Positions 11,495-34,192 of a stretch of 64,000 nucleotides of DNA are shown piece after piece. The stretch's first letter is position 1; each line of letters opens with the position of its first letter. Under the pieces are notes generated by a model. That model saw nothing but the letters and a program-made list of their open reading frames with translations, made no database searches and was not told where the DNA came from. The stretch spans positions 51,522,001 through 51,586,000 of the forward strand of contig OZ287754.1 in the NCBI GenBank assembly GCA_965649765.1, read 5' to 3'. A program made the translations under genes and the position numbers. The DNA is from Bispira polyomma (taxonomy: Eukaryota).

Positions 11495-12844
11495 ATGAGT
11501 AGAACCATGGCTATCAGAAGTGGACCAGTCAATATATACACTGTCATCTTATTTTGTCTCATAGTGTACTTGGTTATGAGAACTATCAACAATGTTCAAA
11601 ATATTGTCATCAAAAGAGAGGAACATACTCAGATTATTAACATGAACAGCGGTCAGTGCCAGCAAAGAGATCCCTATGCAGCGATTCCTCCATTCATGTA
11701 CAAGGTCATTGAGGATATAGTGGAAAGTGACAATCTGCTAATGCCAACATGTAGCAATGGTCAGAAGAAAAATTTCGTGTTTCAGCAGGTCTACAGCTGT
11801 GCATCTGAATCTCTGGCTGAACTTTTTGGCAGGTACGTGCTCAAGAATGGCCTTACTGCTTTGGTACCGGTAAGAGAGAAACAATACCTCGGATGGCCAC
11901 ACTATCTCCATAGCTTTATGTACAAGAATTCTACAGATGGCATTTACAATGCATTGATCCACAAGACAGTTTACAACCGCTCCAGAATTGCCCCATTAAT
12001 GCCCGAGGATACAGTGTATATTACCAATATTAGAGATCCAGCATTCAGGCTGGGCACTGCACTGCATTCCGGAGGTATGAAGTCCTGCGGCCACATGCCA
12101 AAGGAAACCGTTGATGTGACTCAGGAGTTTCTAACAGATATGGAAGGATATGACAATGTGTACAAAGCCCCGTCTAACATCCTTCAAATTGAGGAATGCA
12201 GGTGCAACAAGAAAGCTGTCAGCATTGCCCAGAATTCAATGGCCTTTGATTTAGGTTTTTTTACTGGGTTTCACATGTACACCAGAGACAAATCTAGGAA
12301 CTACACGTTCATTCAGAACTGGCTTAAGGATATACATACCCAACTGGACGTTATCATGATCCAAGAAAAGTTCAACGAGTCCTTGGTGTTCTTAAAGAGA
12401 GCTATGTGCTGGGGATTTAAAGACATTCTCTATAAAACCAAGGCTTTCACAGACAGAAAGATGTATACAAGTAAATACAAGGATGAAGATGTGGCCAAAT
12501 TCAGACAATGGAGCAATGTGGACACTTTGCTCTACGACATGTCTTCTCAACTATTCAACAAACGTGTGGATTCTCTTGGTTTAGACTTTCAACGTGAAGT
12601 AAAGCAGTTCGAACAACAGCTCGCCGCTGTCAATATGTTCTGTTATGATGATTCTGAAAAGACGAGCACTGAAATAAAATTCATGGCCTCCGACTGGGAT
12701 TCAGGCTATGTGATCACACGGCAGGACTGTGCTGCACTCTCTTCGAAATGGATGTATGTTAGGCGTGACCTGAGTGTGGACCATGATAAAAGGCATGGCA
12801 GACAAGCACCAGAGGATGGTTGGAACTATGGTGCATGGTGTTAA
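11495..12844 (+). CDS. Galactose-3-O-sulfotransferase-like type II membrane protein, 449 aa, single coding exon; 5'-PSB motif degenerate (possible pseudoenzyme)
   Basis: N-terminal TM anchor (IYTVILFCLIVYLVM); family motifs YITNIRDP, NSMAFDLG, FNESLVFLKRAMCW and WSNVDTLLY. The KTHK motif is replaced by QVYS. A polypyrimidine acceptor ending at 11475 suggests a 5'UTR intron. Confidence 0.9.
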   Translation: MSRTMAIRSGPVNIYTVILFCLIVYLVMRTINNVQNIVIKREEHTQIINMNSGQCQQRDPYAAIPPFMYKVIEDIVESDNLLMPTCSNGQKKNFVFQQVYSCASESLAELFGRYVLKNGLTALVPVREKQYLGWPHYLHSFMYKNSTDGIYNALIHKTVYNRSRIAPLMPEDTVYITNIRDPAFRLGTALHSGGMKSCGHMPKETVDVTQEFLTDMEGYDNVYKAPSNILQIEECRCNKKAVSIAQNSMAFDLGFFTGFHMYTRDKSRNYTFIQNWLKDIHTQLDVIMIQEKFNESLVFLKRAMCWGFKDILYKTKAFTDRKMYTSKYKDEDVAKFRQWSNVDTLLYDMSSQLFNKRVDSLGLDFQREVKQFEQQLAAVNMFCYDDSEKTSTEIKFMASDWDSGYVITRQDCAALSSKWMYVRRDLSVDHDKRHGRQAPEDGWNYGAWC

Positions 12845-18407: not shown

Positions 18408-19097
18408 AACACCTGCTTTGTTAAGAATATAATCTTTCAAGATAAGAATTTTGACACTTTGTTTATATAGGTTTTTTGCAGGTCAACTTGACCTCAAATA
18501 CCTTAAAGTTGTACAGTAGTGTATAAAGTTTTATAGCTTATAGTGATACGAGGGTATCATCAACTCCTGGTCACTCTACTACTACCACAGCAAAGATAAA
18601 TTTAATATCAAGACAGACCATTTTTAAATATTAAGCTCTTTTAAGTGTGACATATTATCTTTATGTTATCACTAAACAATGGTTTACATTGTAAATCCAA
18701 TATGTAATGTGTGAAACAAATAATTTTTCTGAAAAATTATTTTTTTCTTGAAAAATTGTGTAAGTTCTAGGATTAATATGGTGTGGAACATTTTGCTCAA
18801 GTTACTTTACACTACTTAAATGAATTCATCCAGTGAGTAATATTTATATCAGGAACACCTTCCAGCAGACACACCTTGATGAAACAAATTTGCATTTCAT
18901 GAACAGGAAGGAAATATAAGTCGACGTATACTAGGAAGTGGTTGAAATTTTGTAAAAATTTCCAGTTCACAATTTAACTTGATTAAGATACCGGGTATGT
19001 GGGAATTGGTCCTCTTATCAGGCTCTTGTAAAGCTCTGTTTTGGTGTCTATAAAACACTTTCTCATGGTTCTCAACATAAGGTATGACAGTTTAATT

Positions 19098-22000
19098 ATG
19101 GGTGGCACGCATATCATTGTGGTTTTATCTGCTGTATTTTTCAGCTTTTTTCAAGTCAAACTAGTAATTTCTTGTGATTTTGAAGAATTGCAAACAGTAG
19201 GAATACAAAAGGGTAAACATTATACTGGTGTAAATACTAACATTTCTGGTAAAACTAACATTGCTTTACTAGCTGAATATGAGGATGAATATACTCAAAC
19301 CTCTGAACGAGAACTGGAAGAGAAACATGATGACCATCATAGGGTGAGGAGAATTAATACTTCAGAAACAGATGTCAAAGATGTACTAACGGTAGGGAAG
19401 AATACACAGTCCAGGCATAAGACAGCAAGGGAATGGTACAAGCTGTTTCAGCCCTGTTCACTAAAAACTCTACTACCAAACAATTGTGTTCCCTTCCTTA
19501 GTCATACCTCTGTGGACTGTGCATCATGCCAATATGACACTGATTATTTTAATACATCTGTCTGTTTCTTACATTATCCAGTCAACCTTACAGATGCTTT
19601 GATGCAAAGAGAAATTGATCTTAAAAAGACCAAATCATTAAAGCTTGTCCTTAATAACACCTGGACTGGTTTTATACAGTATAGGAATGTATTGGACTTG
19701 ACAAGGATGAAATACATGACTAAATTGGTCCGATTTCAGGTCATTATATGCTATGTGGAATATTCCAGCAAGTATCACATTGAATACCAGAATGATACAT
19801 TTGAAAAGTTATCAGAAATGATTAAACTAAGGATTAACGTACCAATGTATTTCGCAAAACTCACAGAAATTGTTTCTCATTTTCCAAAGCTACAAATTTT
19901 AGACTTGTCCTATGTGAGAGTAATTGGCATGAATGAGATGGCACAAACAGTGCAAACAGTAAAGAAAACTATCAAAGAGCTAGTGTTAAACAACTTCCAA
20001 ATGATCGGTGACAACAGATACCATGACACCCTGTGTTTTTCCAAGTTCTTTGGAAATGGGACTAGGTTTCGAAAACTCCAAGACCTTACAATACGAGACA
20101 ATTCACTAACACGGATCATCCCAGGAATATCACGTGCTGCCCCTAACCTCAACATTTTGGATGTTTCACGCAATATCATCATTGATTCTAGAAATGTTGC
20201 CTTTTTGTTGGAAGTATTTCTACATCCCAACCTGAGATGTTTGTATGCTGCAGACCAGGGTATCATAGGTGGTGGGCCAGATGTTTATCAGCATGTACGC
20301 AAGCCTGACAATCAGTGTCTAAAGGAGAGAGATGCATCTTTACTACAATACCCAGGGGCGACTGCTAGCAAGACTTTGTCGAAAACATCAGTGTCTCAAA
20401 AAAGCATTGACCATTTTAGATTTTCATCATTGGAAAACAGGAAAAGTAGCACATCTTCATCGGTTAAATATTCAGCGTTTAAAAAAAATATTGATAGGAA
20501 ACTCAGGATAAAAGGGAAATCTCTTGCAAGAGAACAAGCCACTTCACAAGTGGTAAAGCAATCTCCTCCTATTTACTTCAATCAAGTGGCATACAATCAT
20601 TTTATATATTGTGCAAATGAGATTTTGAATCCTTCAGGACCAATTAATATTACTTTGTTCTTTAATGGATCTGACCAAAAGTCACGTTTATTTCGTCTCA
20701 TAAAATGTATGTTACCTTATCAGTTTGACGACAGCATACCCACACATATATTACCTACACTAAGTGAGACTTACAGTTATGAATGTATGTTTTGTACAAA
20801 AGTACCTTTTGGTAAAAACCTTTTAAAGGTAGATATTTCAAATCAACATTGGGAGAAGTCTATTACCCTTGGGCTGAATCTGCACGGAACTTTCTGTGTC
20901 AGAAAAAACAATCTACAATCTTTTCGTCTTTCTGATAATTCTGCTTGGCTAAAATCATTTAAAATTGAAAACGATTTTCGGCATCTAAAATCATTTGATG
21001 GCGTGGAAAAATTGAGATTCCTTGATATTTCAAACAATGATATAACTTTTAATGTTCTTCGAGAATGGGGTTCATTCCCAAATTTGCAGAATTTATCCCT
21101 GTCAGGTAATAATATATCTTTCGCTGCATCTTTTGAGTTCTGTGACAATCGGTCTGTATTGCTGACATCATTAAATCTTTATAAATGTAGTCTTGGCCTA
21201 AAAGGATCTCTACCAGTCCATCTGGTGAGAGGCTGTTCATATTTAAAAGTGCTACATCTGGATGGAAACAGTTTAAATAGCTCCGATCTGGAAACTCTCC
21301 GTTTTGATGGAGTTCATAGCCTGAGCATTCTTAATCTGACCGAAAATGACTTAACCGCACTAACTGATACATTTATTACTAAACTCAAATATCTACAAGC
21401 CATTAAGGACACTGAAAGCAAGAACCTCACCATTGACTTGACCAACAACAACATCCTATGTAACTGTGGCTATTATGAATTTGCAATGTGGTTAGTGATA
21501 GGACACCACAAAGATACAATTCACATTCAGAATGGTGACCAGTTGAAGTGCTTAAATGTGTATGACTCTGTTATGTTGATATCTAAAATATCATTAAAAG
21601 ATTTCCATGATGTATGTTCTGATGTTAAAGTTATATCCATGAGTGTAGCAATTACGGTTGGTTCTGTCCTGATAGTTGTAGTTCTGATTCTTCTCTACAA
21701 AAACAGGTGGCGTATACGTTACACTTTGTTCAGAATACAGCAATCGTGCAAATACTTGTACTATCGTGCCACAAACGATGAAAAAGAGATCATTCCATTC
21801 CAATTCGATGCCTATGTGGCTTATGCAGATGATGACAGATATTGGGTATGTACCTCTTTACTTAGTAAGCTGGAAAATGAGTGCTCATTGAGGTTGTGCA
21901 TCAGAGATAGGAACTTCATGCCAGGGTGCAGCAATCTAGAACTGATTTTACGTGGGATCGAAAAAAGTAGGCATATGATTATCATATTTGGGAAAAACTC

Positions 22001-22343
22001 ACTCAAGTATGAGTGGTTTAAGTTTGAGTTGGAACATGCCATTATCAGGCTGAACACAACAGGAAAGAAACCGATTGTCATCACACTTCACAACATAGGC
22101 AGTATTGGGGGGAACTCAGCAGCCTCACACATTTTAGGTTTGAATCAATATCTGGAATGGGTGGATGATGACAATGGAAAGAAGTTAATGTGGAAAAAGC
22201 TGGTCAAAATGTTATACGGCAATAAAGACCATTGTGAAATGGGTTGCACCAGCAAATGTTTGAAGAAAAGACATAATGGATATACAAGGATTCCATCAGT
22301 AACTCAAGATGATATAAATATATTAACCGTATCAACCAAATGA
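19098..22343 (+). CDS. TLR: Toll-like receptor (signal peptide, LRRs, LRRCT, TM, TIR), single exon; likely ATG at 19098, alternative ATG at 19065
   Basis: LxxLxLxxN repeats; LRRCT NNILCNC...C...C; TM at 21630-21698; TIR from 21804 with FDAYVAY and BB loop LCIRDRNFMPG. Uninterrupted ORF of more than 1000 codons. Confidence 0.96.
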   Translation: MGGTHIIVVLSAVFFSFFQVKLVISCDFEELQTVGIQKGKHYTGVNTNISGKTNIALLAEYEDEYTQTSERELEEKHDDHHRVRRINTSETDVKDVLTVGKNTQSRHKTAREWYKLFQPCSLKTLLPNNCVPFLSHTSVDCASCQYDTDYFNTSVCFLHYPVNLTDALMQREIDLKKTKSLKLVLNNTWTGFIQYRNVLDLTRMKYMTKLVRFQVIICYVEYSSKYHIEYQNDTFEKLSEMIKLRINVPMYFAKLTEIVSHFPKLQILDLSYVRVIGMNEMAQTVQTVKKTIKELVLNNFQMIGDNRYHDTLCFSKFFGNGTRFRKLQDLTIRDNSLTRIIPGISRAAPNLNILDVSRNIIIDSRNVAFLLEVFLHPNLRCLYAADQGIIGGGPDVYQHVRKPDNQCLKERDASLLQYPGATASKTLSKTSVSQKSIDHFRFSSLENRKSSTSSSVKYSAFKKNIDRKLRIKGKSLAREQATSQVVKQSPPIYFNQVAYNHFIYCANEILNPSGPINITLFFNGSDQKSRLFRLIKCMLPYQFDDSIPTHILPTLSETYSYECMFCTKVPFGKNLLKVDISNQHWEKSITLGLNLHGTFCVRKNNLQSFRLSDNSAWLKSFKIENDFRHLKSFDGVEKLRFLDISNNDITFNVLREWGSFPNLQNLSLSGNNISFAASFEFCDNRSVLLTSLNLYKCSLGLKGSLPVHLVRGCSYLKVLHLDGNSLNSSDLETLRFDGVHSLSILNLTENDLTALTDTFITKLKYLQAIKDTESKNLTIDLTNNNILCNCGYYEFAMWLVIGHHKDTIHIQNGDQLKCLNVYDSVMLISKISLKDFHDVCSDVKVISMSVAITVGSVLIVVVLILLYKNRWRIRYTLFRIQQSCKYLYYRATNDEKEIIPFQFDAYVAYADDDRYWVCTSLLSKLENECSLRLCIRDRNFMPGCSNLELILRGIEKSRHMIIIFGKNSLKYEWFKFELEHAIIRLNTTGKKPIVITLHNIGSIGGNSAASHILGLNQYLEWVDDDNGKKLMWKKLVKMLYGNKDHCEMGCTSKCLKKRHNGYTRIPSVTQDDINILTVSTK

Positions 22344-23352: not shown

Positions 23353-23549
23353 AACAGTAGCCAAAATTGGGTGGTAGAGAGTTGAGGTTTGACAATACTT
23401 TTAAGTTAAAGCTATTGGCCTAAAGGAAATCATGGTCGGTTTATATGGTGAGGAAACCAAGTGCTGTTTGGGATGTATTTATTTTCTATCTACTGCCTCT
23501 ATGTACAACTATACAAGTAAAATTCTGTGTAAAATTTTAAAAATGCCAA
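23353..23549 (-). repeat. Split direct repeat B2 (3' terminus of outer Ngaro)
   Basis: 197-bp copy of 24262-24458, about 9 mismatches. Confidence 0.95.
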
Positions 23550-23825: not shown

Positions 23826-23980
23826 CGCTCCATGGGATGGAACCCCGGTCCTATGGCACCTAGTCGCCTAGCAGTGAAAGTTCCAGGCTGCAGAGCTGAA
23901 TTCCCTGGTGGCCCACACTAGGGGGAAGTTGCAAGCCGAGAACCAGCACCACACGGACCGAGGTTCAAACATAAGGAGTG
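23826..23980 (-). other. Predicted structured RNA element in the A2-B2 spacer of the outer Ngaro element
   Basis: GC-rich island. Minus-strand arms GAACCTCGGTCCGTGTGGTGCTGGTT and GACTAGGTGCCATAGGACCGGGGTTC pair over ~25 bp with several G.U pairs and enclose further stems. Confidence 0.55.
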
Positions 23981-24042
23981 GGACGCAAGTTATCAAAAAT
24001 GGGAAGCCAAGGAAGATATAATGTTTAGGGTGGAGGGTTGGG

Positions 24043-24458
24043 AAAAAATATATGTGTTGCTTACTTGACTTGCAACTTAATAATGGTGAATTTGTGAGAA
24101 AGGCGGGAAGAGCTATGCTGTGGAGGAAGGTGATTGGTCACTTAGCCTAAGTGTGCTAATATCTAATTGGGGTAGCTAGGTAAACAATTTTAAGAGAAGG
24201 TCTACAGTAAAGTATCGAATTATTTGCCACTGACTTGCCATGCTATACTAGCAGTGACATCAACAGTAGCCAAAATTGGGTGGGAGAGAGTTGAGGTTTG
24301 ACAATACTTTTAAGTTAAAGGTATTGGCCTAAAGGAAATCATGGTCGGTATATATGGTGAGGAAACCAGGTGCTGTTTGGAATGTATTTATTTTTTATCT
24401 ACTGCCTCTATGTACAACTATACAAGAAAAATTTTGTGTACAATTTTAAAAATGCCAA
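24043..24458 (-). repeat. Internal B1-A2 repeat junction (copy of the circle junction)
   Basis: 24043-24265 matches 33971-34192 and 24262-24458 matches 23353-23549; the two overlap in AACA (24262-24265). Confidence 0.95.
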
Positions 24459-24465
24459 AGCCAAA

Positions 24466-25447
24466 TTAAAAAGTAGTAGAGACAATAGAGGCAAAAGTAG
24501 ATGGGATAATGGAGGCTGCATGAGACGTAGCTTGTAAGTATGACCAAACAGCATCGGATTTCCAGCACCCATGTCTTTGTATATCCTGGAGTTTTACATT
24601 TGAGTTAAAAGCTAGAGAGGCTCCAGAACGTCTGAAGCAATGAAAGGAATGGTCATCCAAAGGAATGTTAAGGTGAGTGAGGATGTTATTGAGTGTAAGT
24701 CTGAGCTTAGAATCTGAAAGGCAAAGGCCTTTGTCTGATGGGTGGGCCAGAAATGGGGCTATAGAATGTAGATGATATTTCTTAGATAGAGATGTGGAGG
24801 CTCTAACTGGAAACAACCAGGGGTTTGTAAGTGAAGGTAATTGGATGATGTCTGGGTTTTTTTCTACTGTGGTTAGTCTTGCTCCATTAGAGGATAAGGT
24901 GTATATCTGGTGGGGCGAAAACTATGTCAGCCCTAGTGAGGTGTCTTGTAGGGTCAAAAGGTGAGCCTGAAGTAGTGGTAAGATTGGAAAATCTAAGGAA
25001 GCCGAAGAAAGCGAAAAGAAAGGCTGTCCTGTAGAACTCAGGGAAATGAAGTAAGTCATAGGCCTGTGAAATTTTGGATAATTGGTGGAGATCAAAAACT
25101 CCTTTTATTCTGGGGGTGTATTTGGTGATGAGTTCTAGAGACCTAGTGTACAAAGTTAATCTAGGGTCATATAGGCCTGTGTGTTGGAAATTAAACAGTT
25201 TGGCATTGTGTCTTAAGGCAGACAGGTAATTTGCAATCACTTTGTGAGATATTCCTGATTGTGTTAGAAACTCCAAAAAAAGCTAGGATGGTGTTAAATC
25301 TAAATGTGTGTTGTAAGTCGTAGTACACAGTGAGGGCTAAGAACAGTCTGAATTGACTATTGTATTGTCTCTGGGTTCTGGGTCTGTGGCTCTGTCATAG
25401 TCTTGTAAGGGCACCCTGGATCAGTGAGCCAGCTGAGTGAGAAGTCC
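24466..25447 (-). pseudogene. Tyrosine recombinase of outer Ngaro (stops and frameshifts)
   Basis: RHRY-type motifs FLRFSN, HCFRRSGA and HGCWKSDAVWSY. The N-terminus SHRPRTQRQYNSQFRLFLAL begins right after a TTTCAG acceptor. Confidence 0.9.
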
Positions 25448-25467
25448 CTGAAATTATGAATAATTAT

Positions 25468-27520
25468 CTAATGTAAAAAAGTAAGAGGTATGTCAAACAT
25501 TTTGAAATTGTCAATGATAATAGCCCTAGTGTAGTCGTCACAGGAGTTAGGTTCATACCAACGTGAAAGTGTGTCAGCGATGATATTGTCCTTGCCTGGA
25601 ATGTGACTAATTACAAGGTCAATGTTTACTGTGGCACAAATCTGCCAAAGGTTCCTTAAGCATAGTCCTAGGTAGTTATCTTTAGTCTTGGATGACTGCA
25701 CCACAGTCACCACAGCCATGTTGTCTGACTGAACCTTAAGTTTTTGGTTTTTCCATCTGTGACTCCAAAGCTTTAAAGCAATCAAGATGCTAACCATTTC
25801 AAAATGTATGATTGATAAAGTATGAGTCAAAAAGAGAGGTACAGGAGTTTTAAACACGTTTTTGTCCCATATACCACCAATGCCAAATAAGCAAGCGTCT
25901 ACCTGTAACAGGGCATCATAAGGTTTGTTAACATAATTATAGGTGGTTATTCCGTTAAATTGCAAGAGAAATTTCAAAAACCAAGCTAAATCCTGGTGAA
26001 AATCCGTATTCAGGATAACTGTGTTACAACTAGTAGATTGGCGAAGTAGTGTAAGCATCCTGTTCATAAATATATGCGAGGGTTTAATACATCTGTGAAT
26101 ATACAGCAGTTTTCCTAGTAAAGATTGATATTTCTGTTTACGTACCTTTCTTAGGTATTGGAACTCGACACAAGTATCATATATGGTATTCAGTTTATCC
26201 TCGTCTATACTGAGGGTTTCATTTGTGATATCAATAGTGATGCCCATACAGGTGACTTACTGGGAGAAACTAACTTTTTAGAATTAATGGGAAGACATAA
26301 ATCTATGAGGGTTTCTTGTAAGGTGTTGTAAGCTAAAATGACCTTATCTTCAGACTCTACGAGTAAAAAATCGTCGATGTAGTTAAATACTGTGAAACCT
26401 TCAGTTTTATAATATAAGTGACACAATCTGAGGCCATCATAAAGGCCGCCGTGCCATGGGTTAGGCCAAAGGTCAGGGTAAGATCAATGTAATAGTTATT
26501 TTTCCAAAAGTATCCAAGTTTAAGGCAGTCGTAAGGGTCAATTCTAATGTTGCGAAAAGTGTGAAAAATGTCCACTTTCGCTAAGGTGGCCTTAGGACCA
26601 ATGGTCAAAATGTGGGAAGTAATTTGGTCCATAGTTGGAAGTTTGAGGTTGAAGTTAATGTGGTCATATTTAGTTTTTACTGTGCAGTCATTCACAGATT
26701 GTCCTGTGGGATGGGAGAGATTTAATACTAATCTATGTTGGTCAGTGTCCTTAGGGACTGTTAATAGAGGAGAACAGTGCAAGTCTGGGTAAAGATCACT
26801 ATTGATAGGACCAATTATGGTGCCTCTATTAACCTCAGTAACGAAATATTTGTCTATTGCCTGAGGCAAGGCTTTGGCTGAGAATGATGGTTTTTAACAT
26901 TTGTAACATGTAGTCGATCTTTCTCACGTAAGGAAATAGGGAATACGAATACTTTTGTCAGGGTAGTCAGCAAAATATTCTTTCCACTTGGCCACATTGA
27001 GGTTACTCTTAAGTGGAATACGTGCCAATAGTTAGGGACTCCAGTGGCTTTAATAAAGTTGGCGACCTCCACAAGTTTATGATATGAATCAATGTTGACC
27101 TCTTTTCTAACAGGACCCACAAAGGTGAAGTTATTATACACATGTGGAATGTAACCAAAAAGGTTTACTTTCAATTACTTTCAATTACCAAATTGCCCTC
27201 TTGTATGTTGTTGTTGTTAGTGAGTTTATCTGAGCATTGTGATTGAAGTTCTTGTGTTATAACGTCCTCATGATCTACAAGGGGGATGTGTATGACAGTG
27301 GTATCACGGCTATGAGTATGTTTTATATCTGATAAGATTTTGAGCTTTGTAGTAACAGGTACTACCTGAATTTGTGTCTGTTCATCAAGTTTACATATGT
27401 TATCTATAATATTTGTATAATATATAGTGCTACCTAAAGTGTTACGTGTATGTGAGGAAGTTTTGTTTGAGTTACCTTTCTGAGAGGTGTTTGCACAGCA
27501 GGCCCCTTCAGGGGACTGAT
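25468..27520 (-). pseudogene. RT-RNase H (pol) of outer Ngaro, frameshifted
   Basis: AKVDIFHTFRNI, LTFG, FNYIDDF, LQVDACLFGIGG, IIHFEM, SDNMAVV and NIIADTLSR spread over four ORF fragments. Confidence 0.9.
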
Positions 27521-27812
27521 AGTTCAGTCCACATACAAAATGCTTGATTATAATTCACAACCTTAATTTCGGTTACACCAAAGATATATGTAGCTATTTA
27601 CTGGGCTACTAGCCAATCACAGCCCACACAATTGTTGTTTAGGCTTCACTTTCTAAAGCACAATTTTAAATCTCCATTCAAGCTGTAGATTTCGAATGAA
27701 CAACAAGTGGAAAATATTTTTTATGAAACAAATGGACTGTATATATTTTATTTTATGGTTTTAACTTTGTTTTAATTGTGTGTTACACGGTGCATATTAT
27801 AAAGGAATCGAC

Positions 27813-29196
27813 ATGGGCCGCACTAAGAAAATGCCCACACAAAGCTCTGTGAAAAAATCCACCAAGAAACCACTGACTTCACGTAAGACAAAGGAAAAGC
27901 AGGTAGAAGACACTTTAGTTCAGAACCTTGACGGCCAGTTATCCCAAGTAGCGGGCTGCCTCAGTAATAATAACTCTATCCAACAGATGCATAGCGATAC
28001 ATCCCCTATTATGTCTTCCCAGGGACCCTACTTAAGCCGGGTTCAGACGTGTCCGACAGTCAAAATTCAGAAAAAATGCTAGCCATCCTCATGAGGTTAG
28101 AATCGTCAAAAGCAGATTTAGCTGACCATCTACAGAAGGTAGAACAACAGGCGGCGACAAACGTACCCACGATACACACCCCTCCTCTTATCGGATCCGG
28201 GCATGAGACGGCTATCGGGCAGATGGCAACTACCCCTTCACTGGGCGCGGGATGTGTTCCACCACATAATCAAGCTACTTCAGGGCACTTCGGCCAGGCT
28301 GTGTCTATGTTGCAACCATATACAGGCTATCTCTCTCACCCAGCAGCTCAGGCTAATGCTGCGTTCGCGTTCCCTACACAGGCAGTCGGCGTTGCATCAG
28401 CTTACATGCAAAATACCAGATGAGATGTCCCTGTAGCAACACAGACGGGTTACATGGGACAAGAATTCCAACGAGACGGGATCGTTCCAAACCTCGATAC
28501 TCTGAGATCTATACCACATGTTCAAGCTGAAGTGACTCGACAACTGGCACAGTACTCGGTCCCCACGCAACGTGACTTAACACAAGGTAAGACTTCCCTT
28601 AAACATAAATCAGGGCGCTTTAACAATACAGATGTTACCGCTATGGACCCCAGAGTAAGATGGCCCAATTTGGTTGGGTAGGGGGATCCTCAAAAAAGAA
28701 GCCGACCTTTGACGAACTCACAATGCCGCAGTGGCCTGCAGGGCAGCTCGCTAACGCGCTCTTAGTTCCCAACCCTACAGAAATGAAGGACATGATAAGA
28801 CAGGTAATTTCAGGGTTAAGAGATGCTTCATCTCTCCCATGGCACGTGGTCAGGACAGCTTGGGCCCTCAGTATGCATGAGGTTGAGGAGGGTCGGCTGT
28901 CCTGGCAGAATGACACCCAATGGTCACTGAATAGACTCAGTGCCTCGCAGTTGGCCATGATCAACAGTGCAAACGTAGGTACTAATGGTAATAACGGTAA
29001 CAGTGAATCTAAGCTTATTTGTAAACTCTATAACAATGGCAAGTGTAGCCATAAGTCAGACCACAACAACTACAAACATATTTGCTGGCACTGCAGCCGA
29101 ACCCTAGGAAAGGACTCGAACCATCCCAAGTTCAAGTGTTACAAATCCAATAGTAAACAGCTGGACAGCCAGGCGAATCAAGGGAAACAAAGCTAA
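27813..29196 (+). pseudogene. gag of inner Ngaro (frameshifts, one stop)
   Basis: Homologous to the outer gag (KSGRFN, WPN, FDELTMPQW); C-terminal Cys/His cluster CKLYNNGKCSHKSDHNNYKHICWHC...HPKFKC. Confidence 0.82.
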
Positions 29197-29631
29197 GTCT
29201 TATTTCAACAACCAGGAGAACGAACTATAGATAAAGATGAGTGTAGAGTAGAATTAATGAATAAAGATATTAGTAAAACTGAAACTGCTAAACATTTCTG
29301 TTATGAAAATATAATTAATAAGATATTGCCTTATGGTAACCAATATATCAACTGTGTTAATAATAATGTAAACATTATGAATAATTATGTAAGCACAACG
29401 TACTCCAGTAATGTTATAGATGTTTTAGATGAGGGCATGATGGCTGATCACAATTGTGCATCAGAACATCATGATTTTTATGTGTATGATAATTTGCAGT
29501 CCAGCTTTAGTGGGGGCAACCAATTTCAGAACTATACCAGTGAGTCAGCTTAGAAGTTCAACGCTATCTATGATGGTACTTATAAACCAGCAATAAGGCA
29601 GGTAGTTGATAAAAATCATTTAGAAGTAACA

Positions 29632-31953
29632 GTGACTGTTACCAATTGGCAACATTTCTGTCAAAAATGGTCCATTTGGGCCCCCATAGTTTTCTTAAAT
29701 TGTACTTACAGGGAAATTAAAGGGTTTTATTATATGTACCATCATAGTGGGGATAATGAAGTTAAATATATACCAGTGATACATGTACCTCAAGAAAGAC
29801 TGCAAGTTATAAACAGATATGTCACAGCCATATACCATGACCAGGCGACACAGTTTCAAAACTTAATAGGAAAAAATATCCAATTGAATGCTGAAGACAT
29901 CAAACAAGCAGGCAATGTCTATTACAATTTTAAGAAAGATGAAAAATGTTACCAACAATATGGTTGTGACTATTCTGAACATATAACTAACATTATTGAT
30001 ATTATGTGTGATGAGAAATGGAATGTAGGTAGCAGTGACAGTAGTAGCAGTACAGTCAGAGAAACAGTAAGTACTGCACATGGACACAATACTCTCAAGA
30101 GTGTGGCCTGCGATAAAATATACACCTGTCCGATACGTGACTTCTTCTTCCAAACTGATGGGGTCAATGTTGGCCACACTTCTAACACTAGGGAAAATTT
30201 TGACATTAGTCAACTTGAGAAAAAAGTGGGGTTTATTCCCTTATCTTCAACAAAATTTAAGTTTATTGGTCCTGATCAGGAACCAGTTAAAATTGACTCA
30301 ATTGAAAAGATGAGAGAAATTGCTGCTATAATTAGAGGCACGAATCTCCCTAATTATAAGCAAGCTAGAATTCCATTGATCTCGGGATTACACCATACGG
30401 CTTGGGAGAAAATGCTCACTGACTACCCAGATCAATTATTGTTACAGTATGTAAAATTTGGCTTTCCTTTATCACTCACAGATCCAGAAAAGTTAAACAA
30501 CTCTAAGATTGTGAATCATTATTCTGCTCTGCAATACACTAAGAAAGTCGGACAATATCTTGAGAAAGAAAAGTCAAAGGGGGCAATGTTAGGCCCAGTT
30601 AAACAAGTGAACTCACAACACTATAACTGCTCACCGCTTTTAACCAGACCCAAAGACATAGATAAACGTAGGGTAATTTCGAACCTTTCTTATCCCCAAG
30701 GGCAGTCACTGAATGAAAACGTAAACAAAACACTGTTCGATGGGATCAAATTTACTTTAAAATTCCCAACTATTGATGACATAACGGAAGCAATACAGGA
30801 TACTACAGATCCAGTGGTTTTTAAAATTGATGTGGCCCGAGCTTTCCGTAACTTGAGGGTAGATCCAGTTGATGCACTTAAACTTGGCATACAATTTGCT
30901 GAAGGTCAATACATTGACCCTGCAGTAGCGTTTGGGTGGGTACATGGAAGCGCGGCTTTCCAGTGCTGCTCGGACGTTATAGCAATGTACATGTCTAAAC
31001 ATGGCTTTAAAGTCTTTTGTTACATCGATGACTACATATGTGTATGCACTAAGAGTAGGGCTGATAAGGGTTTCCATATTCTCAAGTATTTACTACTAAA
31101 GCTAGGTTTCCCCATGAACGATGATAAGCTTACACCTCCCACAACAAGGCTCCCAAGTTTAGGTATAGATTTTGACATCATAGCGGGCACTATTAGTATA
31201 CAGCAAGAGAAACTTACAGGTATATTGCGAATGATTAATGACACATCTAACAAACTACACATTTCACGCACACAATTTCAGTCTTTATTAGGAAAATTAT
31301 TATACATCCACAAATGTGTGAGACCAGCCAGAACTTTTATAAACAGATTACTATTACACTTTAGAAAAGATCATAGTTCCAAAAAATTCACAATTTCTGC
31401 TGAAATGCGTAGTAATATAAATTGGTTTCAAAAATTTTTACCACAATATAATGGTATATCATACATTACCCATAAGGACATCTCACACATTGACGAATTA
31501 CATCTGGATGCCTGCTTATCAGGTTTAGGAGGCGTTTGGAACAAAGAAGTCTATGCTACACCATATTTCAATGTATACGGGAGAGAGCTTACCATAGTGC
31601 ATCTAGAGATACTTAACATTGTTCTGGCTTTAAAAGTTTGGGGTGAAAAATGGGCTCACAGTAGACTTGTAATTAAGTGTAATAACATGGCCGTTGTACT
31701 GGTTGTTGAAAGTCAAAAGCCCAAAGACGAATTTCTAGCATTATGTTTAAGAAATATTTGGTTGCTTACAGCCACATATGACATTAATATTGACATTAGA
31801 CACATTCCAGGCAAGAAAAACGTAATAGCAGATGCTCTTTCCAGGATCTACTGTCAAAGTCCACCTAGCGGGAACATGTTACATAACCTATATAAAAATT
31901 ATGTCTGGAATTTAATACCCATCCAACATTTTGACCTAATTTTTTTGATATAA
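29632..31953 (+). CDS. RT-RNase H (pol) of inner Ngaro, 773-aa open ORF; the frame extends upstream to 29197 with one stop
   Basis: FKIDVARAFRNL, AFGW, FCYIDDY, LHLDACLSGLGG, IVHLEILN, CNNMAVV (N where the outer element has D) and NVIADALSR. Confidence 0.92.
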   Translation: MTVTNWQHFCQKWSIWAPIVFLNCTYREIKGFYYMYHHSGDNEVKYIPVIHVPQERLQVINRYVTAIYHDQATQFQNLIGKNIQLNAEDIKQAGNVYYNFKKDEKCYQQYGCDYSEHITNIIDIMCDEKWNVGSSDSSSSTVRETVSTAHGHNTLKSVACDKIYTCPIRDFFFQTDGVNVGHTSNTRENFDISQLEKKVGFIPLSSTKFKFIGPDQEPVKIDSIEKMREIAAIIRGTNLPNYKQARIPLISGLHHTAWEKMLTDYPDQLLLQYVKFGFPLSLTDPEKLNNSKIVNHYSALQYTKKVGQYLEKEKSKGAMLGPVKQVNSQHYNCSPLLTRPKDIDKRRVISNLSYPQGQSLNENVNKTLFDGIKFTLKFPTIDDITEAIQDTTDPVVFKIDVARAFRNLRVDPVDALKLGIQFAEGQYIDPAVAFGWVHGSAAFQCCSDVIAMYMSKHGFKVFCYIDDYICVCTKSRADKGFHILKYLLLKLGFPMNDDKLTPPTTRLPSLGIDFDIIAGTISIQQEKLTGILRMINDTSNKLHISRTQFQSLLGKLLYIHKCVRPARTFINRLLLHFRKDHSSKKFTISAEMRSNINWFQKFLPQYNGISYITHKDISHIDELHLDACLSGLGGVWNKEVYATPYFNVYGRELTIVHLEILNIVLALKVWGEKWAHSRLVIKCNNMAVVLVVESQKPKDEFLALCLRNIWLLTATYDINIDIRHIPGKKNVIADALSRIYCQSPPSGNMLHNLYKNYVWNLIPIQHFDLIFLI

Positions 31954-31959
31954 TTACAG

Positions 31960-32934
31960 GTGCCACTGCCATCAGTCAGAATGTCATCACTTCAGCGTGT
32001 GAAAGAATCCACACAGCTCTCAGACCAAAGACTTCTACTGCTTATGAAAATCAGTTTAGAACTTTTCTTGCCTTCAATAAATTTGCAGGCATTTCAAACA
32101 TTTCTGTACATTCTGTATTGGCCTTTATGGAATATTTAACACAAAATAACATTTCACCTGCTGCAGTGGCAAACTATCTCTCTGCTTTAAAATTTATGGC
32201 TAGAAAACTGAACTGGGACTTAGCCCCCTTCAGTCACAATTCTGTGGCACTTTTTGTTAGAAGCATTACAATCAACTCAAAATTTCGCCCTAGATACAAG
32301 GGACTGTTTGAGATTGCACAATTGGCACAGATATCAGTAGCATGTTCCATTCTGGATGATCCAATACTGTATAGATCCATTTTTATGCTTGCTTATTTTG
32401 CATTCCTTAGATTATCCAATATTGCCCAACACTCAAGGGCTTCATTTGACAGCTCTAGGCACTTTCTTAGACAGGACGTAATGTTTGGATATCCAGGGGC
32501 CCATATTATCTTGAAATGGGCAAAAAAATTGCAAAATAGAACAGACACACATCATACAAATCCCAAAGTTGGAAAATAAGCTGATTTGTCCAGTACTAGC
32601 ATTACAAAAATTACTAGCTGTCAGACATTTACCTCCTTCTGCACCACTTTCTGCAGGCGCTGGTATTCCACATTATACTGTAGTAGAAACTCATGTTAGA
32701 ACAGCATTAGAAAAGGTTCTCACACACATCGGCATTCCATACTCCTCACATGGGTTCCACACGTTTAGATGTTCTGGAGCTTCATTTGCATTCAATCACA
32801 ATGTATCCTTACAAACTATAATGGCCCACGGGCTATGAAGATCATCTTCAGTTTGGGCTTATTTACAGAAAACATCACAAGCAGCATCAGTGGTGCCTCA
32901 GACCTTTGCCTCTGCCATTCCCTCTTCTTTTTAG
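31960..32934 (+). pseudogene. Tyrosine recombinase of inner Ngaro (one frameshift, one TGG>TGA stop)
   Basis: ALRPKTSTAYENQFRTFLAF, FLRLSN, HTFRCSGA and HGL*RSSSVWAY; the ORF starts after a TTACAG acceptor. Confidence 0.9.
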
Positions 32935-32942
32935 TTGGGCTT

Positions 32943-33970: not shown

Positions 33971-34192
33971 AAAAAATATATGTGTTGCTTTCTTGACTTG
34001 GAACTTAATAATGGTGAATTTGTGAGATAGGCGGGAAGAGTTATGCTATGGAGGAAGGTGATTGGTCACTTAGCCTAAGTGTGCTAATATCTAATTGGCG
34101 TAACTAGGTAAACAATTTTAAGAGAGGGTCTACATTAAAGTATCGAATTTTTGCCACTGACTTGCCATGCTATACTAGCAGTGACATCAACA
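33971..34192 (-). repeat. Split direct repeat A1 (5' terminus of outer Ngaro)
   Basis: 222-bp copy of 24043-24265; contains CCAAT boxes on the minus strand. Confidence 0.95.

Follow-up and report, generated by a model that had tools for sequence, protein, structure and literature searches.

A motif of about 135 nt, located in the 3' spacer of a Ngaro-type retrotransposon, recurs in many families of the Bispira polyomma genome and is not private to the copy in the window. Covariation supports a model in which this stretch, read as sense-strand RNA, forms a three-way junction in which P1 closes the structure, P2 is a long arm, P3 is a hairpin that hardly varies and an invariant G stays unpaired. 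The motif is apparently undescribed, a well-supported RNA of one genome in a class of elements whose priming is an open question. We give a probability of about one half to the reading that the junction is a recognition signal, through which the Gag and RT of the element pick out full-length read-through RNA to package it and to start reverse transcription.

The GC-rich island and its host element

The window, a stretch of 64,000 nt of contig OZ287754.1, carries on its minus strand an element with the following parts:

33971..34192, minus strand: split repeat A1, the 5' end of the element (repeat comparison)
24466..27174, minus strand: frameshifted RT/RNase H and tyrosine-recombinase frames, family F1 (ORF list, RVT_3 match)
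24263..24458, minus strand: split repeat B1, with AATAAA at B+66 (repeat comparison)
24043..24262, minus strand: split repeat A2, 95-100% to A1
23353..23549, minus strand: split repeat B2, the 3' end of the element, with AATAAA at B+66 (repeat comparison)

The split direct repeats of this element are arranged as A1-ORFs-B1-A2-B2. Its intact relatives L113 and L114 have three ORFs on one strand, in the order gag, RT/RNase H and tyrosine recombinase (RVT_1 and Phage_integrase matches; the gag label comes from position alone). No methyltransferase family was present among the Pfam matches of 6 ORFs at E 0.05, a search that a remote, weak methyltransferase could escape. The repeat layout, the gag-RT/RH-YR order and the lack of a methyltransferase match are points of likeness to the Ngaro elements (order DIRS) described in excerpts of PMC8547959, PMC9210276 and PMC4157794. 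Judged from its sequence, the host element, which we place in family F1, fits the published Ngaro type of YR retrotransposon.

The first-pass annotation had described a GC-rich island at 23826-23980, between the 3' split repeats. Indeed, this stretch has a GC content of 0.581 vs 0.34 in the remaining spacer, and it is flanked by A2 (24262-24043) on one side and B2 (23549-23353) on the other. Among 30 F1 loci, 25-nt bins of the island were 0.87-0.96 identical vs 0.69-0.87 downstream in the spacer, a comparison biased by the selection of the loci for likeness to the island. Contigs of three sequencing runs (two samples, one study) pile on 23833-23914 and turn loose at 23838-23840, which is the edge of P1; they reflect shared sequence, not expression.

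A second Ngaro element, from family F2, occupies about 27700-32935 of the window on the plus strand; it is nested head-to-head inside the first and is 3'-truncated directly after the recombinase stop. Adjoining the element are an intronless Toll-like receptor gene (LRR and TIR; 19032-22343, plus strand) and a galactose-3-O-sulfotransferase frame (11495-12844, plus strand).

Evidence for a three-way junction

The predicted junction has the following parts, all on the sense strand of the element:

23835..23971, minus strand: whole three-way-junction motif (match of covariance model R1)
23955..23966, minus strand: 5' strand of P1, GAACCTCGGTCC, pairing with 23851-23840; in 26 representatives, both partners vary at 10 of the 12 pairs
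23840..23851, minus strand: 3' strand of P1, GGACCGGGGTTC (covariation)
23953..23954, minus strand: junction G-U; G unpaired or bulged, U may pair with A23852
23947..23952, minus strand: 5' strand of P2a, GTGGTG, pairing with 23876-23871 (CACTGC); pairing in 97% of cells, compensatory change in 3 of 6 pairs
23871..23876, minus strand: 3' strand of P2a, CACTGC (covariation); P2a is 94% paired on the held-out set
23880..23944, minus strand: P2b arm (GGTTCTCGGC-TGCA / TGCAGCC..GAAC), with a distal hairpin at 23923-23903; the arm covaries
23914-23910 with 23897-23893, minus strand: possible, weakly supported pseudoknot in the P2b arm
23852..23870, minus strand: near-invariant core UA-GGCG-RNUNGG-UGCC-NYA (P3 hairpin and junction strands), from genome pattern matches; variants occur among clusters

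RNAalifold, applied to an unfitted MAFFT alignment of 26 family representatives, returned P1, the unpaired GU, arm P2, UA, P3 and NYA, with 22 pairs, 13 of them compensatory. On the same representatives, the hand-drawn fold was 82% paired, compared with 43-53% in slid controls, and had a covariation score of 0.288 vs 0.157 (0 of 500 shuffles, which ignore kinship). A held-out set of 23 rows, 20 of them selected with no use of the 3' half of P3 and 3 taken from group Z, had 89% of cells paired vs 38-50% in slid controls, 12 of 21 pairs compensatory and a score of 0.382 vs 0.177. RNAalifold recovered P3 only from a gappy, model-fitted alignment of 50 rows. Conservation and covariation of homologous spacers, set beforehand as a test in the first-pass annotation, were thus found across families of one genome, and they support its proposal of a conserved cis-acting sense-strand RNA more strongly than its author could show.

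The three parts of the junction vary in different ways. The P3 pairs, 96% kept on the held-out set, had no compensatory change in either set; the P3 loop has the sequence R-N-U-N-G-G, in which a single U is invariant, and one position of the core, the N of NYA, accepts all four bases. An A-U pair extending P3 was discarded, as it was broken in 14 of the 23 held-out rows. The junction U was present in 41 of 41 representatives and the junction G in 37 of 41; three A variants at the G fit CpG decay. P1 may extend past this G through a U-A pair (22/23 held-out rows) and a G-Y pair (21/23), leaving it bulged, so that the G would be unpaired in either register. The P2 arm measures 59-106 nt in total and has a variable tip. 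The candidate pseudoknot at this tip has some compensatory variants and a mean helix of 4.38 bp vs 3.76 bp in shuffles, with 13 of 29 rows reaching 5 bp and the strand missing from 8 further rows; 8 clusters were dropped before this count, and short arms were skipped. The pseudoknot was ruled out by eye in family F2, where the partner is occupied by the arm. The pistol ribozyme, group II domain V, the SRP Alu domain and the tRNA D/T loops were considered as look-alikes and dropped for misfits of topology or covariation.

The individual helices read from the window copy fared differently in this comparison. The sequence and the single-copy minimum-free-energy (MFE) fold both contain the 12-bp stem formed by GAACCTCGGTCC and GGACCGGGGTTC, the outer CTCC/GGAG stem and both inner stems. 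The proposed 13-bp inward extension of the helix belongs to the single-copy MFE fold only and is not part of the conserved structure: its first 7 pairs had no compensatory change among the 26 representatives, and three of them were broken in 13, 4 and 16 of the 26, respectively.

A further claim, that the fold is specific to the sense strand, could not be read from the window copy, where the sense strand showed modest stability (-68.5 kcal/mol, z -2.69, matched by 3 of 200 shuffles) and the plus strand folded better relative to shuffles (z -4.15, 0/200). We therefore draw on the comparative data for the part of the claim that stands. The strand comparison covered 36 of the 41 clusters, 5 having been dropped as misanchored, deleted or homopolymeric. 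Fold z-scores favored the sense strand in only 19 of the 36 representatives. A strand-neutral count of mismatches gave 96 of the G.U type vs 34 of the A.C type, and the wobble bias pointed to the sense strand in 25 of 36 representatives, with 5 against and 6 tied. This comparative support favors sense-strand folding, since G.U outnumber A.C mismatches.

Distribution among families of the genome

To describe the spread of the motif, we rely on pattern matches over one genome. The core pattern (3' block) had 996 matches with up to 2 mismatches, compared with 0 for the reversed pattern, and the 5' and 3' core blocks linked at 55-85 nt had 494 vs 4 for the control. From the fetched loci came 130 instances, which grouped into 41 clusters at 85%; most of the instances were recruited via the core pattern, which inflates the invariance of the core. 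The recombinase (YR) pieces of motif-bearing families are 24-72% identical, and their flanks do not align. F2 copies, collected via the recombinase alone, carry a GC-rich island in the corresponding position and hold two short blocks in common with F1, although BLAST finds no match. In this YR-picked set, the motif was present in 18 of 18 copies retaining A2 and in 0 of 11 copies without A2. Model R1 scored 128.7 bits at 23835..23971 on the minus strand, its sole match in the window, the window copy being among the training rows.

Families X and Y, met by chance in flanks, gave no match in 28 loci (best, 9.1 bits), nor did six further X loci; thus, the motif is not universal. The YR of family X is 61% identical to that of a motif-bearing family, and most family Y copies stop at B1. 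Family X has a different conserved, GC-rich multistem fold at the same place (L135, L138 and L178-L209), with variation too small to fix the fold.

Outside the genome, exact core patterns gave 0 and 1 match in viral contigs, 2 in metagenomes (both in one bacterial gene) and 7 in prokaryote genomes. We dismissed these matches as chance, since all scored at most 23.6 bits vs 33-134 bits for motif-bearing element loci. An alignment of YR sequences had 154 candidates but no relative among viral contigs, and 258 YR-homologous proteins were found in ENA assemblies.

Rfam searches of the window stretch and 20 loci, at E values up to 10, 5 and 2, returned only chance matches off the motif. Our search of the literature found no description of such a motif; the founding Ngaro papers (Goodwin and Poulter) or Repbase entries may mention one. 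The excerpts of PMC8547959, PMC9210276 and PMC4157794 describe no RNA structure (hairpin or secondary structure) between A2 and B2, and PMC3266345 has no mention of the terms looked up.

Position of the motif and its possible role

All 10 full-length elements examined, drawn from 7 families, have the core between A2 and B2, at 139-310 nt from the former and 267-663 nt from the latter; the motif is at no fixed distance from any element end. It falls downstream of the AATAAA of B1 and upstream of that of B2. B carries AATAAA, the first one at +50 to +105, and this hexamer was present in the B1 of 9 of the 10 full-length elements. Family R has another layout: the motif sits within a B of 445 nt, with AATAAA 243 nt upstream of it and the ACTG end about 80 nt further on. 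Copies of the forms A-ORFs-B and A-spacer-B were seen for this family, along with a single B1|A2 junction and no complete copy; one of its B copies is without AATAAA. If the hexamer is a poly(A) signal, the motif would be present solely in RNA that reads through B1, because it is placed after the B1 AATAAA in both layouts. At one family R locus (L125:7780-7920), the 60 nt before the motif resemble a decayed tRNA D-arm and anticodon arm, duplicated in tandem.

These positions agree with the following scheme for the recognition of read-through RNA. A would act as promoter and B as terminator; the AATAAA in B, a hexamer in AT-rich DNA, would be a poly(A) signal, such that most transcripts would stop in B1. 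Only read-through RNA would then carry the B1|A2 junction required for rebuilding both ends, and a signal confined to this RNA would allow Gag/RT to select it. The variable stems may serve as scaffold, and the ∼25 near-invariant bases of the junction may be the protein contact. The free distance to the ends and the read-through-only placement in family R are as expected for a recognition signal. A separate noncoding RNA initiated in A2 became less probable with family R, in which such an RNA would terminate before the motif.

The working analogue for the recognition reading is hepadnavirus epsilon, a structured cis signal that is bound by RT, selects the genomic RNA and starts replication, the primer then moving to a 3' site (PMC8903280, in excerpt). 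Epsilon is a bipartite stem-loop with a template bulge near the 5' end that requires a terminal-protein domain, whereas the Ngaro motif lies toward the 3' end, is predicted to fold as a three-way junction with no such bipartite organization and has no Rfam match. The CR4/5 domain of telomerase RNA is a three-way junction. It also binds RT and has a small conserved stem-loop, P6.1, with an essential loop U, as P3 of Ngaro has an invariant loop U; P6.1 is lost in protostome telomerase RNAs (both from the consulted parts of PMC8480181). The Ngaro motif differs from CR4/5 in having no sequence or Rfam match, no template and pseudoknot domain, and hundreds of copies inside retrotransposons.

Several other readings compete with recognition by Gag/RT. 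The motif might be a nuclear export or stability element for unspliced read-through RNA that is bound by a host protein, in analogy with the musD transport element, which we consider rather unlikely. This would suit a structured 3' noncoding element with a possible pseudoknot, as the musD element is a structured retrotransposon RNA with tertiary contacts, namely, a pseudoknot and a kissing loop (PMC5767303, excerpts), and a host partner would fit the invariance across families with very different proteins. However, a pol message left unspliced and terminating in B1 would not include the motif, which lies behind the first AATAAA, Rfam gave no match, and the musD element, which acts via the host export machinery, has another size and fold and does not match the motif. 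Readings at another level, with the motif suppressing polyadenylation at B1 or acting as folded single-stranded DNA or as a promoter element, appear very improbable. The position downstream of the B1 AATAAA and a B-box-like word, GGTTCGAACC, at the 5' edge of the motif in several families speak for them; against them, this word is lost in other families, the motif of family R follows both B copies alike, and the strand indicated by the wobble bias is the sense strand, while the cDNA of DIRS-1 corresponds to the antisense strand (excerpt of PMC7192593). The modest stability of the single copy (z -2.69) is what a chance fold would offer, and an inserted MITE or SINE had been named as an identification that would undo the claim. 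We give these next to no credence: the motif sits at the same, fixed place within elements of many unrelated families, stems have compensatory changes, linked blocks had 494 matches vs 4, ARAGORN found no tRNA (0) and Rfam nothing, and the B-box-like word of a tRNA-derived element is not conserved.

A bolder proposal is unlikely in our estimate: the junction may be the missing Ngaro primer, with RT starting DNA on the 2'-OH of the bulged G in retron style, or a new ribozyme class that processes genomic RNA. As an unclassified self-cleaving or ligating ribozyme, the motif would have its scissile position at the identity-free N of NYA. Such a ribozyme, which we find improbable, would account for the ∼25 near-invariant bases at a three-way junction whose stems covary freely and for one position that takes any of four bases. 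However, the first-pass annotation, which found no match by eye to hammerhead, HDV, twister or pistol cores, was borne out: Rfam matched no ribozyme in the window stretch and 20 loci, and on the sense strand the cores of hammerhead (CUGANGA), twister, twister-sister, pistol and hatchet were found in 0 of 41 clusters each, and the HDV loop was found in 3 of 41. In terms of model or core, the motif matches none of the small self-cleaving classes (hammerhead, HDV-like, twister, twister-sister, pistol, hatchet, hairpin). Cleavage here would moreover split the template in the interval from A2 to B2 or, in family R, within B1, and copies end at repeat borders rather than at the motif, in sets that favor complete motifs. 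Thus, the position of the motif argues against self-cleavage and for recognition of read-through RNA. The retron-like version, in which cDNA would start from the 2'-OH of the invariant, unpaired G that adjoins the closing stem and the short product would move to the RNA 3' end, strikes us as quite improbable. Retrons prime from a conserved G bordering the inverted repeats that close the domain (PMC13402713, in part), and the Ngaro motif likewise has a long closing stem of family-specific inverted repeats adjoining an invariant G (37/41), past which P1 can run (U-A 22/23, G-Y 21/23) with the G bulged. Nevertheless, priming in the spacer would lose its 3' part and B2 unless the primer were transferred, and full copies retain both; the motif also has no msd template or long msd-like hairpin on its 3' side, and the RT is of the eukaryotic DIRS type, matching RVT_1 only in Pfam and not a retron RT.

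The recognition reading bears on a gap in the biology of these elements. Template choice and the start of reverse transcription in tyrosine-recombinase retrotransposons are unexplained, and DIRS elements have no known primer, a 3' hairpin having been suggested once (both from the consulted parts of PMC7192593). The 135-nt motif, which has a defined core and occurs in young intact elements, makes direct experiments possible, and the structure of family X offers a natural replacement for comparison. As a new RNA family, the motif also provides a marker for Ngaro elements, the ends of which are difficult to annotate.

The loci examined contained further regularities of the repeats. Half-elements were frequent: about 14 of 29 F1 loci (L002-L030) begin at A with no preceding B1 (A-spacer-B), and 11 of 29 F2 loci (L032-L060) are without A2, mostly terminating at B1; others are L267 and L109. 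These forms resemble the SIRE of VIPER, and isolated A-B units occur here as for Cafeteria and SIRE/VIPER in the excerpt of PMC6681497. They could originate from the recombinase acting between two B|A junctions. Tandem arrays were also found, one reading A-spacer-B|A-ORFs-B|A-spacer-B (L117) and another, in family X, having five spacer units with a period of 1553 bp (L184-L188). A C-rich word (CCACCCTCC-like) directly follows A2, and B begins TTGGG..TTAAAATTTT (window 24020-24045 and 24440-24465, and the same places in other families); these look complementary and could enclose B1|A2 in a single large loop where the template switches are presumed to occur. ACTG forms the end of B in almost every family, and the B1|A2 junction forms a hairpin (e.g., GGACTG...CAGTCC) that is a possible candidate for a folded recombinase site.
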